A DNA stretch of 53,444 nt from Gammaproteobacteria bacterium (GCA_016124415.1 WGNS01000052.1:1-53444), one strand, 5' to 3'. Counted from the stretch's first letter, positions 39,356 through 42,742 are shown. Program-made: numbers and translations. Notes: generated from the letters alone by a model not told the origin.

Positions 39356-41266
39356 ATGTCAACACAAGGAAGATTTCCTCTGCTCGAGGCCATCGACGGC
39401 CCCGCGCAGCTCCGTCAATTGCCCGAAAAACGCCTCGGCGAACTGGGTAGGGAGTTGCGTGAATTTCTGGTCGAGTCGGTTTCCCGTACCGGCGGGCACT
39501 TGTCGGCCAACCTGGGCACGATCGAACTGACGATTGCGCTGCATTACGTCTTCGACACCCCCAGGGATCAGTTGATCTGGGACGTCGGCCATCAAACCTA
39601 CCCGCACAAAATCCTGACCGGCCGCCGCGAGGCCATGGCCGGACTGCGCCGCAAGGGCGGCATCGCCGGATTTCCGAAGCGCGACGAGAGCGAATACGAC
39701 GTCTTCGGCGTCGGTCATTCGAGCACCTCGATCAGCGCCGCGCTGGGCATGGCGATCGCCCATCAACGGCAAGGCGAACGGGACCGCCGGGTCGTCGCCG
39801 TCATCGGCGACGGGGCGCTGACGGCAGGTATGGCCTATGAGGCACTGCTGCACGCCGGCCACGTCGGGTGCGACATGCTGGTGATCCTGAACGACAACGA
39901 GATGTCGATTTCACCGAATGTCGGCGGCCTGTCGAACTACTTGGCCAAGCTGCTCTCCGGCCGTTTCTATTCGACGATGCGCGAGGGCGGCAAGAAGGTG
40001 CTGAGCACGGTACCGCCGGTTTGGGAGCTGGCCAAACGCGCCGAGGAACATATGAAGGGCATGGTCGTGCCGGGCCCCGGCACCCTGTTCGAGGAACTCG
40101 GATTCAACTACATCGGCCCGATCGACGGCCACGACATCCATACTCTGGTAGAGACGCTGCGAAACCTGCGCACGCTTAAAGGCCCGCAGTTCCTGCACGT
40201 CGTGACCCGCAAGGGCAAGGGCTACGCCCCGGCCGAGCACAACCCCTGCGGATATCACGGCGTATCATCCTTCGACTGCGAGAGCGGTGAACTGCGGACC
40301 ACAAAATCAAGCGGCCCCAGCTACACCGAAGTTTTCGGGCAGTGGCTTTGCGACCGCGCCGCCGCCGACCCGAAACTTGTCGGGCTGACGCCGGCCATGC
40401 GCGAAGGCTCCGGCATGGTGGCATTTTCGGAGCAGTATCCCGAGCGCTTCTTCGACGTCGGCATCGCCGAGCAGCACTGCATCACGCTCGCCGCCGGCTT
40501 GGCCTGCGAGGATACCCGGCCCGTCGCGGCGATCTATTCAACCTTCCTCCAGCGCGCCTACGATCAGCTGATCCATGACGTCGCGCTGCAGGATCTGCCG
40601 GTACTGTTCGCGATCGACCGCGGCGGGCTGGTCGGGCCCGACGGCCCCACGCACGCAGGCAGCTTCGATCTAAGCTACCTGCGCTGCATTCCGAATATGA
40701 TCGTCATGGCTCCGGCCGACGAGGACGAGTGTTACGCCATGCTGACGACCGGCCACGTCAGCGGCCGTCCGAGCGCGGTGCGCTATCCGCGCGGCGTCGG
40801 GCCGGGCAAAGCGGTAAACCGCGACCCCGGGCGGACGCTGCCGATCGGCAAGGCCGAACCCCGCCGCAGGGGTCGCGAGATCGCCCTGCTGGCCTTCGGC
40901 AGCACGGTCGCGCCTTGCGAGGCCGTCGCCGAGCAACTCAACGCCACACTGATCAACATGCGTTTCGTCAAGCCGCTCGACGAGGATACCGTCATTCAGG
41001 CGGCGCATGAGCACGGCTGCATCGTAACGATCGAGGAAAATGCAATCGCGGGTGGCGCCGGCAGCGCGGTCAACGAGTGCCTGAATGCCCATGGCTACAC
41101 CGTGCCGACGCTCAATCTCGGCATCCCGGACCGCTTCATCGCCCACGGCAGCCGGGACGAACTACTGGCTGAATGCGGGCTCGATGTCGCCGGCATCCGG
41201 CACTCCATAGAACGTTTTTTGCAAGGGCGTGCTTGCAAAAAACAGGTGATCGACGTAAATTCATAG
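39356..41266 (+). CDS. dxs: 1-deoxy-D-xylulose-5-phosphate synthase
   Basis: [43 protein letters not shown]; start reset to ATG 39356. Confidence 0.97.
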
Positions 41267-41285: not shown

Positions 41286-41687
41286 ATGGTTCCGCGTTTT
41301 TGCCTCAAGGTCAGCGTCAGCTTTGCTGCCGCACATCAGCTTCGCGACTATCCGGGCGATTGCAGCCGGCTCCATGGCCATAACTGGCGCCTTGAGGTCG
41401 AGGTGTCCGCGCCAAGGCTCGACGACAGCGGCATGGTCGTCGATTTCCGGCAGATCAAGCAGGCCGCCCGCGAGGTGACCGACGAACTCGATCACACCTT
41501 CCTGAACGAAATGCCGCCGTTCGACAGGCTCAATCCGACGGCCGAGAACATCGCCGCCTACCTCTACGGACAGCTTTCGGATCGGATCAACGACGGCAAT
41601 CGATCGATAACGGCTGTCACGCTCTGGGAGACCGACAACGCCAGCGTGCGATACAGCGAGGAATTAGGGCCTGTTAACGCTTATTAG
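41286..41687 (+). CDS. queD: 6-carboxytetrahydropterin synthase
   Basis: FAAAH, CSRLHGHNW, LDHTFLNE, PTAEN, WET. Confidence 0.92.
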   Translation: MVPRFCLKVSVSFAAAHQLRDYPGDCSRLHGHNWRLEVEVSAPRLDDSGMVVDFRQIKQAAREVTDELDHTFLNEMPPFDRLNPTAENIAAYLYGQLSDRINDGNRSITAVTLWETDNASVRYSEELGPVNAY

Positions 41688-41696
41688 ATCGCCTCT

Positions 41697-41916
41697 GCTG
41701 GCGTCATTTTTTCGTCCGGCAAGGCAGAGGGAGAGCAGTGTAGTGCGTCTACATAAACGACCGAGCCACATACGACTGATAAGGCAGCTGGACGGAAAAA
41801 CGGCGCCAGCCCTTCGGGTTGCAGCCAAAATGCCGCCACTCGTCGTTGCTCGGCGCTCATTTGGAATAACCAAACCACGCTTCTCGCGCCTAGATTGGTG
41901 GCATTTTGGCCGCAAC
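41697..41916 (+). ncRNA. Candidate structured RNA / four-repeat element between queD and folE2
   Basis: 24-bp stem (41697-41720 with 41787-41810) and 21-bp stem (41818-41838 with 41896-41916), with G-U pairs on the + strand; no family recognised. Confidence 0.5.
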
Positions 41917-41950
41917 AGAGGTGATCGAACAAGCGTTAGCAGGCCCTAAC

Positions 41951-42742
41951 ATGACCGATACCGACATCGCAGACGTCCAGAACACCCCCGACACGCGCAA
42001 ACTCGCGATCGACAAGGTCGGCATCAAGGATATCCGCCACCCGATCCGGGTGAGGGACCGCAGCGCCGGCGAACAGCACACGATCGCGACCTTCAACATG
42101 TACGTGGACCTGCCCCATAACTTCAAGGGCACCCACATGTCCCGGTTCGTCGAGCTTTTGAATGCTCATGAGCGGGAAATCACGGTCGCGACCTTCAAGG
42201 AGATCCTGGTCGACATGCAAAAACTTCTGCATGCCGAGTCGGCGCACATCGAGATGCGCTTCCCGTACTTCATCCGCAAGGCGGCGCCGGTCTCGGGCGT
42301 ACCGAGCATGCTCGACTACGATGTCACGTTTATCGGCAACGTCCGCGGCGACAAGGTCGACCTGACGATCAAGGTCGTCGTTCCGGTGACGAGCCTGTGT
42401 CCGTGCTCCAAGGAAATCTCCGAATACGGGGCGCACAACCAACGCTCGCACGTCACGGTCGCAGCCCGAACCCAAGGCTTCGTCTGGGTCGAGGACCTGA
42501 TCGACATCGTCGAGAAAGAGGCCTCGTGCGAAATCTTCGGCCTGCTGAAACGCGCCGACGAGAAATTCGTGACCGAACGGGCCTACGAAAATCCGAAATT
42601 CGTCGAGGACATGGTCCGCGACGTCGCCACCCGCCTCAACCGCGACGAACGAATCATCGGTTACACGCTCGAATCCGAAAACTTCGAATCGATCCACAAC
42701 CACTCGGCCTACGCGCTGATCACCAAAAACATGTCTTGCTGA
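41951..42742 (+). CDS. folE2: GTP cyclohydrolase IB
   Basis: [41 protein letters not shown]. Confidence 0.95.

Follow-up and report, generated by a model that had tools for sequence, protein, structure and literature searches.

Organization of the queD-folE2 junction

In the window, that is the whole stretch of 53,444 nucleotides analyzed here, queD is followed on the same strand by an intact folE2. The profile matches of both genes bear out an earlier note on this DNA, which had named them as the neighbors of a switch-like structured element lying between them. The features of this region are as follows.

41286..41687, + strand: queD (6-carboxytetrahydropterin synthase), TIGR03367, 110.9 bits
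41664..41700, + strand: 5' arm of the outer stem, left terminal inverted repeat and subterminal region
41665..41666, no strand: left copy of the duplicated TA target, positions 2-3 of the queD codon TTA (41664-41666)
41667..41946, + strand: body of the MITE, GGGCCTGTTAAC...GCTAACAGGCCC, 280 nt here including a private 15-nt insertion
41697..41810, + strand: hairpin A, arms 41697-41720 and 41787-41810
41763..41777, + strand: 15-nt insertion private to the window copy, a gap in every other row of alignments A3 and A4
41810..41818, + strand: central GC mini-hairpin CCCTTCGGG, UNCG-like tetraloop or UNC triloop
41818..41916, + strand: hairpin B, arms 41818-41841 and 41893-41916, with the loop mini-hairpin TTTGG/CCAAA
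41913..41949, + strand: 3' arm of the outer stem, right terminal inverted repeat and subterminal region
41947..41948, no strand: right copy of the duplicated TA target, 2 nt ahead of the folE2 ATG (41951)
41951..42742, + strand: folE2 (GTP cyclohydrolase IB), intact, NF010200, 314 bits

An inverted-repeat search recovered the two long stems that had been described, each of 24 nt: stem A pairs 41697-41720 with 41787-41810 (83% complementary) and stem B pairs 41818-41841 with 41893-41916 (88% complementary), the linker between them being CCCTTCGGG at 41810-41818. The features listed in the earlier note thus stood, but a third, outer helix had been overlooked, in which 41664-41700 pair with 41913-41949 over 37 nt with 86% complementarity. 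This helix encloses stems A and B, extends into the end of queD and ends 1 nt short of the folE2 ATG; its 5' arm holds a new QueD tail (GPVNAY) and the queD stop codon TAG at 41685-41687.

The four copies of the motif AAAAYGNCRCCA are all present with the positions and orientations previously given, at 41699 (-), 41797 (+), 41827 (+) and 41896 (-). The window contains five matches to this motif, compared with 0.13 expected by chance, and none of 100 shuffles reached five. The fifth exact match, at 40416-40427 (-), lies within the dxs ORF without element sequence around it and is probably due to chance. We also found the small hairpins reported in the loops, GTGTAG (41738-41743) with CTACAT (41749-41754) in the conserved loop of hairpin A and TTTGG with CCAAA in the loop of hairpin B, the latter loop being the most conserved part of the element. 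Both strands of the whole unit fold far more stably than chance would allow, the + strand with a computed energy of -148 kcal/mol (z = -9.4), the - strand with -139 kcal/mol (z = -9.0).

A dispersed repeat with the ends of an IS5-family element

The earlier note had proposed an undescribed cis-regulatory RNA or sRNA related to folate and queuosine. This proposal has to be abandoned, the unit being a dispersed repeat that stands beside unrelated genes and is absent from the same junction in sister genomes. In the MAG to which the window belongs (2.19 Mb, 98 contigs, 80% complete), we obtained 21 BLAST matches of the unit on 13 contigs, with 73-90% identity. At least 14 further copies are found there beside unrelated genes, a dispersal without relation to folE2 that the note itself had associated with a repeat element. 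Four copies, that of the window counted, are full-length. Since seven copies lie at a contig end or at most ~35 nt from it, the copy number in this MAG is under-counted.

The copies in the MAG align from TA|GGGCCTGTTAAC to GTTAACAGGCCC|TA and no further, and the family consensus measures ~268 nt with the TA counted in. Nearly all aligned full-length copies have the flanks Y-TA ... TA-R, i.e. insertion occurs at YTAR and TA is duplicated. A model with a 4-nt (CTAG) duplication was set aside, as the outer Y and R of a single copy are not the same on its two sides. The element has no coding capacity, the ORFs that span it being merely mechanical and different from copy to copy.

Shorter derivatives are also found, namely a 197-bp form on contig C10, one-hairpin forms on C67 and C23, and solo ends. 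Palindromes of ~22 bp and of the type TAGGGCCTGTTAACAGGCCCTA consist of both ends only, the termini of the element being joined at a GTTAAC core without the interior. Outside the window, the MAG contains such palindromes at C5:16176-16197, C29:11334-11356, C68:6664-6685 and C90:6953-6978; they could be excision footprints or minimal derivatives.

Many copies adjoin or overlap stop codons, or sit inside operons. The terminal TAG of the element is the stop codon of the neighboring gene at C94:22928, C10:17222, C10:66996, C4:154-156 and C96:3848-3850 (copy C96:3582), and it is likewise the stop of the adjacent ORF at the loci L236, L207, L259, L254, L274 and L283. Insertion into a TAA or TAG stop restores a stop codon, and the use of such sites fits a YTAR target in genomes of ~60% G+C combined with selection against intragenic insertions.

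The termini link this repeat to the IS5 family. Indeed, plasmids of P. aeruginosa, E. cloacae and Polaromonas contain annotated IS5-family elements, flanked by C-TA...TA-G, to whose termini the 37-nt end of the element matches. The IS in P. aeruginosa pWTJH2 reads cTAGGGCCTGTTAACGCTAATTAG...GTGTTAACAGGCCCTAg; it measures ~830 bp, has an A8 run between two reading frames, and its end is identical to the left end of the window copy at 22 of 23 nt. Its product is typed NF033580 (transpos_IS5_3), with DUF4096 and DDE_Tnp_1. In the plasmid region concerned (L137, 1243-3454), this IS is itself inserted in another transposase-like ORF, downstream of a tmexC resistance locus. The partner IS type as a whole spans ~811-830 bp and carries ORFA and ORFB with an A7-A8 slippery run; this short ORFA/ORFB type (NF033580) would be the IS427 group of ISfinder.

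In the complete genome G234, at least 10 copies of the MITE and five copies of an 811-812-bp IS stand side by side. This IS possesses a perfect 20-nt terminal repeat, TAGGGCGTGTTAACACTAAT, which agrees with the end of the resident MITE in 17 of 18 nt, and its flanks are again Y-TA. Past ~20 nt, the interiors of the MITE and of the IS are unrelated.

No IS5-type transposase with the ends of the element was found in the MAG of the window, which is 80% complete and of a kind of assembly in which IS elements assemble poorly, or in 40 relatives; in this MAG, PF01609, NF033580 and PF13358 gave no match carrying these ends. PF01609 or NF033580 matches in G001, G016, G019, G023, G024 and G033 were considered as the parent IS and set aside, as they carry other ends. 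Judging from the common termini, an IS5-family transposase would move the element in trans, and we infer that it is mobilized in this way in the host of the window.

Insertion into the queD-folE2 overlap

In G002, a genome of the same genus, the two flanks (85% identical) abut directly. The sequence reads ...AGCGAGGAATTATCATGATC, with an ATGA overlap in which the queD stop TGA lies over the folE2 ATG, and the uninterrupted site has a single TA, GAGGAATTATCATG, where the junction in the window reads GAGGAAT-TA[280 nt]TA-ACATGACC. The junction is likewise uninterrupted in G001, a second sister genome of the genus, and in L030, a more distant relative, the element is absent and the two genes overlap as TAATG. 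The single TA of G002, together with the uninterrupted sites of G001 and L030, indicates that the element inserted in the lineage of the window and duplicated TA in doing so. The insertion is thus a presence/absence polymorphism, present in the MAG of the window (G000) and absent from G001 and G002. As established by comparison of these junctions, the element landed in the TA of a TTA codon, 5 nt before the folE2 ATG, in the stop-start overlap of queD and folE2.

In G001 (L121, G001:C326), queD meets no stop codon at the junction, and its frame continues for more than 100 nt into folE2. Over the ~60 nt examined on each side of the start of folE2, the run of A in GAGGAAAACC is possibly one A too long in comparison with the window; the read-through reflects either a real frameshift or a homopolymer error.

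The insertion gave QueD a new C-terminus, which reads ...SEELGPVNAY* in the window versus ...SEELS* in G002 and ...SEDET* in L030. In summary, ...EEL(T/S) became ...EELGPVNAY: the protein is lengthened by 5 residues, the last 7 codons of queD and its stop come from the element, and this stop (41685-41687) lies inside it. The queD stop and the folE2 start, formerly overlapping, are now 263 nt apart. The native Shine-Dalgarno sequence of folE2, GAGGA (41658-41662), has been moved 284 nt farther upstream; the native start is retained, and the N-terminus of FolE2 aligns with that of G002 from the ATG onward. The bases that precede this ATG are now those of the 3' arm of the 37-bp stem, the 5' arm of which is the translated tail of queD.

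Altogether, the unit has the characters by which a MITE is recognized, since it is short and non-coding, bounded by terminal inverted repeats and a duplicated TA with a corresponding empty site, present in dispersed copies and provided with termini that it shares with an IS. These data demonstrate that a MITE, hence a non-autonomous transposon, is present in one copy at 41665-41948; the MITE measures ~268 bp, and its terminal inverted repeats begin TA|GGGCCTGTTAAC.

Distribution of the family

Within the GTDB family of the window, 11 of 36 species genomes and 4 of 11 genera carry the element, the distribution being patchy within genera. When 400 genomes of the class were sampled with a covariance model of hairpin B (R1), to which the window copy scores 98.8 bits, 52 of them, from 48 of 321 genera, contained matches, and often at least 10 per carrier genome. 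At the level of the phylum, the model matches in 75 of 401 genomes, including nearly all sampled members of one family in another class. The matches listed from outside the class come almost all from one family, f265 (genomes of 1.2-2.6 Mb), in which 59 genomes carry the hairpin-B module; these f265 carriers suggest spread between classes. Full elements of ~268 nt with the same ends were detected with nhmmer in at least 16 genomes, and carriers named among plasmids are those of Halomonas sp. PA16-9, Methylophaga frappieri and Azotobacter chroococcum.

In alignment A4 (26 copies from 9 genomes), at least five terminal-repeat subfamilies with distinct terminal and subterminal sequences share one conserved interior. 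Terminal-repeat types include TAGGGTCTGTTGACGTTTCATTT, TAGGGGGTGTTCTCAATTAATAAG and TAGGGCTTGTTTATCTTTCATATCC, and the copies come from G019, G024, G047, G050, G051, G260 and G385. From these comparisons, the ends of the element seem to have been exchanged or re-tuned and the core retained.

The terminal sequence of the element was found in no relevant paper of the literature library that we searched. The repeat families R26, R200 and R6 of P. fluorescens, known by description only, could be related (PMC2718517).

Conservation of the fold

A covariation analysis argues strongly for the fold. In the 26 copies of alignment A4, standard pairs occupy 95.7% of the cells, compared with 77.6% after shuffling and ~40% when the partner is slid. 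Double compensatory changes are observed in 56 of the 85 pairs (23/27 in the outer stem, 14/19 in stem A, 9/17 in stem B). When this structure was applied to a further 42 copies, drawn from 14 other genomes, 94.9% of the cells paired, versus ~40%. That the fold is real, as the note had maintained, and under constraint is thus supported both by its z-score of -9.4 and by very strong covariation across the family.

Identity between genomes, computed over 22 genomes, differs along the element. It amounts to 0.78-0.82 for the 14-nt termini and falls to 0.41-0.42, i.e. near random, in the subterminal half of the outer stem (17 bp), where complementarity is nevertheless kept. Stems A and B reach 0.62-0.73, loop A 0.70-0.74 and loop B 0.83. 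The central loop, inspected in 54 copies, has T in 51 at its first position, T (34), C (13), G (4) or A (3) at the second, C in 50 at the third and G in all 54 at the fourth; it varies almost solely at the second position of T-N-C-G, and a triloop register fits equally well. Across the family, compensatory change preserves the three-helix fold, and the loops are conserved. Such change can also occur in palindromes without selection, through template switching at quasi-palindromes.

On the other hand, the switch envisaged in the earlier note finds no echo in the family. Arms 1 and 4 had been thought to exchange partners, but the pairing of arm 1 with arm 3 and of arm 2 with arm 4 is realized in 41.9% and 53.4% of the cells, as in shuffles, versus 95-97% for the nested stems; conserved mutually exclusive helices were therefore rejected on these 26 copies. 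As for the kissing interaction between the loops, the complementarity does exist in the window (CCGAGC 41761 with GCTCGG 41848, ACGAC 41772 with GTCGT 41842), but its loop-A side lies mostly in the insertion 41763-41777, or depends on it, and this insertion is absent from the other aligned full-length copies. Kissing loops were thus also discarded, one of the two helices needing the private 15 nt and the remainder being residual homology of the two halves. Loop B, once reverse-complemented, shares ~70% identity with loop A. From this similarity, the element would seem to be a pair of homologous hairpin modules placed in inverted order, an arrangement that explains the complementarity of its loops.

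Other readings of the element

One would wonder whether the element could still be a riboswitch or another cis-regulatory RNA controlling folE2 and/or queD, with a pterin, a folate, preQ or a metal as its ligand. A strong fold placed between two genes of the pterin pathway would suit this reading, which is nonetheless hardly credible: the sister genomes G001 and G002 have no intergenic region at this junction, the element is absent in L030, and its copies adjoin many unrelated genes of no single class. Moreover, the alternative pairings are not conserved, and the kissing complementarity depends mostly on the private insertion. A scan of 41664-41950 against Rfam (cmscan, E <= 10) gave no match, and that of a consensus-like copy only a chance match to a miRNA; no riboswitch or other Rfam model matches, and the earlier note had likewise recognized no preQ1, THF or ZTP consensus.

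The same note had offered a REP/BIME-like repeat as an alternative, and it was correct in that the element is a repeat; the terminal inverted repeats and the target duplication, however, are those of a transposon-type MITE and not of a REP/BIME. A REP/BIME-type extragenic palindrome spread by a RAYT (TnpA-REP) would account for a dispersed, intergenic and strongly palindromic repeat. REPs, however, are units of 20-40 nt without target duplications, and the length of ~268 bp, the 14-20-nt conserved termini that match an IS, the 2-bp target duplication and the clean empty site make this origin scarcely conceivable. A third possibility concerns an IS630/Tc1-mariner-type MITE, comparable to Correia, RUP and ERIC and moved by an IS630-family transposase, with which the duplication of TA at NTAN-like targets would agree. 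We consider it very improbable, since the termini match IS5-family elements instead; in the search for an IS630 parent, no DDE_3 transposase was found in the MAG of the window, and the only IS630 element of the genus, in G002, was rejected for its unrelated ends. An IS5-type MITE inserted between queD and folE2 is, with high confidence, the best explanation overall.

Strand preference and possible RNA function

In the inner stems, G-U pairs exceed A-C mismatches ~5 to 1, and the outer stem is without such an excess. Of 26 copies, 22 fold more stably as the + strand (mean -7.2 kcal/mol); of 42 others, 30 do so (mean -3.2 kcal/mol). The + strand is thus favored, as the earlier note had deduced from the wobbles, but its claim has to be tempered: the preference is weak and lineage dependent, and part of the G-U excess comes from having predicted the structure on the + strand, that of the - strand also having more G-U than A-C. 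According to crude gene calls (ORFs by GC3), orientation with respect to the flanking genes is unbiased, with 9 sense and 3 antisense copies in the MAG and 8 sense and 16 antisense copies in other genomes, which counts against an orientation-dependent RNA role. A promoter scan revealed no promoter-like site in or beside the window copy, and terminator-like sites were found only within queD, on the other strand.

These observations bear on another hypothesis, which would add to the MITE reading: the inner two-hairpin module could be a functional RNA carried by the MITE, either an insulating, stabilizing or coupling-preserving element or an sRNA, and the window copy would then act in cis on queD-folE2. 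Supporting this idea, the loops (0.83) are conserved like the transposase-binding termini (0.78-0.82), and the 17 subterminal base pairs are near random yet complementary. One inner module goes with at least five terminal-repeat subfamilies, the central loop varies almost solely at the N of U-N-C-G, many copies lie exactly on stop codons or within operons, and both the ~5 to 1 ratio of G-U to A-C and the stability of the + strand (22/26 and 30/42 copies) point in the same direction. Against it stand the unbiased orientation relative to neighboring genes, the lack of a promoter-like site in or beside the window copy, the share of prediction artefact in the G-U excess and the ambiguous register of the UNCG loop. 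We regard such a functional RNA as a tentative and rather doubtful addition. As for the conservation of the fold, our best guess is selection at the level of the transcript, by which insertions located at gene ends or within operons would be tolerated; selection for transposition is the alternative.

Expression of folE2 downstream of the MITE

No type-I folE (TIGR00063) was found in G000, G001 and G002, three genomes of the genus of which one is 95% complete. From this survey, GTP cyclohydrolase I would seem to be represented in the genus by FolE2 alone, which is thus probably indispensable. As the apparently sole enzyme of this kind, it must still be made.

Ahead of folE2, Shine-Dalgarno-like bases now occur solely in the 3' arm of the outer stem: AGG at 41941-41943 and AGAGGTGATC at 41917-41926. 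The latter is a near-perfect anti-16S match inside the outer stem, 24 nt upstream of the folE2 ATG, and arises from a T in the window copy where the other copies have C. From its position, AGAGGTGATC would be too distant for a normal Shine-Dalgarno sequence but could play the role of a standby site. The AGG represents the nearest Shine-Dalgarno-like bases before the ATG. In a thermodynamic model, its unpaired probability is 0.000 in the free mRNA versus 0.895 once 41664-41697 is held single-stranded, and this segment is the part of the queD tail that a terminating ribosome would cover.

Since the AGG is unmasked when 41664-41697 is opened, we propose that folE2 could be coupled to queD through opening of the outer stem by ribosomes. 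According to this model, folE2 would still be translated from the queD transcript. Ribosomes reaching the end of queD would melt the outer stem on its 5' side, thereby freeing the initiation region of folE2 and restoring a form of translational coupling. That folE2 stays coupled to queD in this manner is a serious possibility, to which we would give somewhat less than an even chance.

A more general and more speculative hypothesis would be that of an "operon-compatible" MITE with an RNA-selected interior, in which tight folding of the transcript would draw together the two ends of the element, and with them the stop codon on one side and the start on the other, and the downstream start would be unmasked solely by upstream translation. 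We consider it improbable. If true, the element would colonize stop codons and stop-start overlaps in two proteobacterial classes with the genes staying coupled, and the copy in the window would be what now actually couples queD to the only gene for GTP cyclohydrolase I.

Significance and comparison with known systems

Recognition of the MITE removes a false riboswitch candidate from the annotation and explains both the odd C-terminus of QueD and the gap of 263 nt before folE2. For assembly, the element is a practical cause of contig breaks in carrier MAGs. Beyond this locus, roughly one in eight of the gammaproteobacterial genomes sampled has hairpin B, which also occurs throughout one family of another class. 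For a MITE, the element has an unusual pattern of conservation, with conserved loops, stems that covary freely and interchangeable types of terminal repeats, and the family lands habitually on stop codons, its own terminal TAG often being the stop of the neighbor. The locus itself offers a tractable case of a transposon inside an operon, between translationally coupled genes, where an apparently essential downstream gene survives. The family, for which Rfam has no entry, belongs to the IS5-type MITEs and is distinguished by an unusually conserved and widespread fold.

A parallel can be drawn with MITEPsy1 of Pseudomonas syringae, an IS5-family-derived MITE of 100 nt with 18-nt repeats and a 4-nt duplication, which derives from the 1.2-kb ISPsy2 and the mobility of which was shown experimentally (PMC3189936). 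Both elements are non-coding, have IS5-family-like terminal inverted repeats and CTAG/YTAA-type targets, and can land at gene ends, making new C-termini (PMC3189936). The element of the window differs from MITEPsy1 by its size of ~268 nt, its 2-nt (TA) duplication, its match to ~811-830-bp ORFA/ORFB IS5-family elements and its conserved internal three-helix fold, and there is no sequence similarity between the two. With the short ORFA/ORFB IS5-family ISs (NF033580), it has in common the terminal 14-23 nt (TAGGGC[C/G]TGTTAAC...) and the Y-TA/TA-R flanks; unlike them, it is a MITE without transposase, and its interior is unrelated past ~20 nt.

Correia (NEMIS) of Neisseria, ERIC of enterobacteria and RUP of pneumococcus are structured MITEs of ~100-160 nt with TA duplication, which are co-transcribed with their neighbors; their transposase families are different or unknown, and RNase III/E processing as well as promoter activity have been documented. 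The window element resembles them in being small, bounded by terminal inverted repeats and flanked by a duplicated TA, in its frequent location at gene ends or in operons and in the long hairpins that it would form in mRNA, and differs in sequence and size. Another comparison concerns the bcr1 repeats of the Bacillus cereus group, which are MITE-like, have been reported as transcribed and keep an RNA structure by compensatory changes. Although sequence, host phylum, target site and size are all unrelated, the element described here is, like bcr1, a mobile repeat with covarying stems, which suggests a constraint on its single-stranded form.
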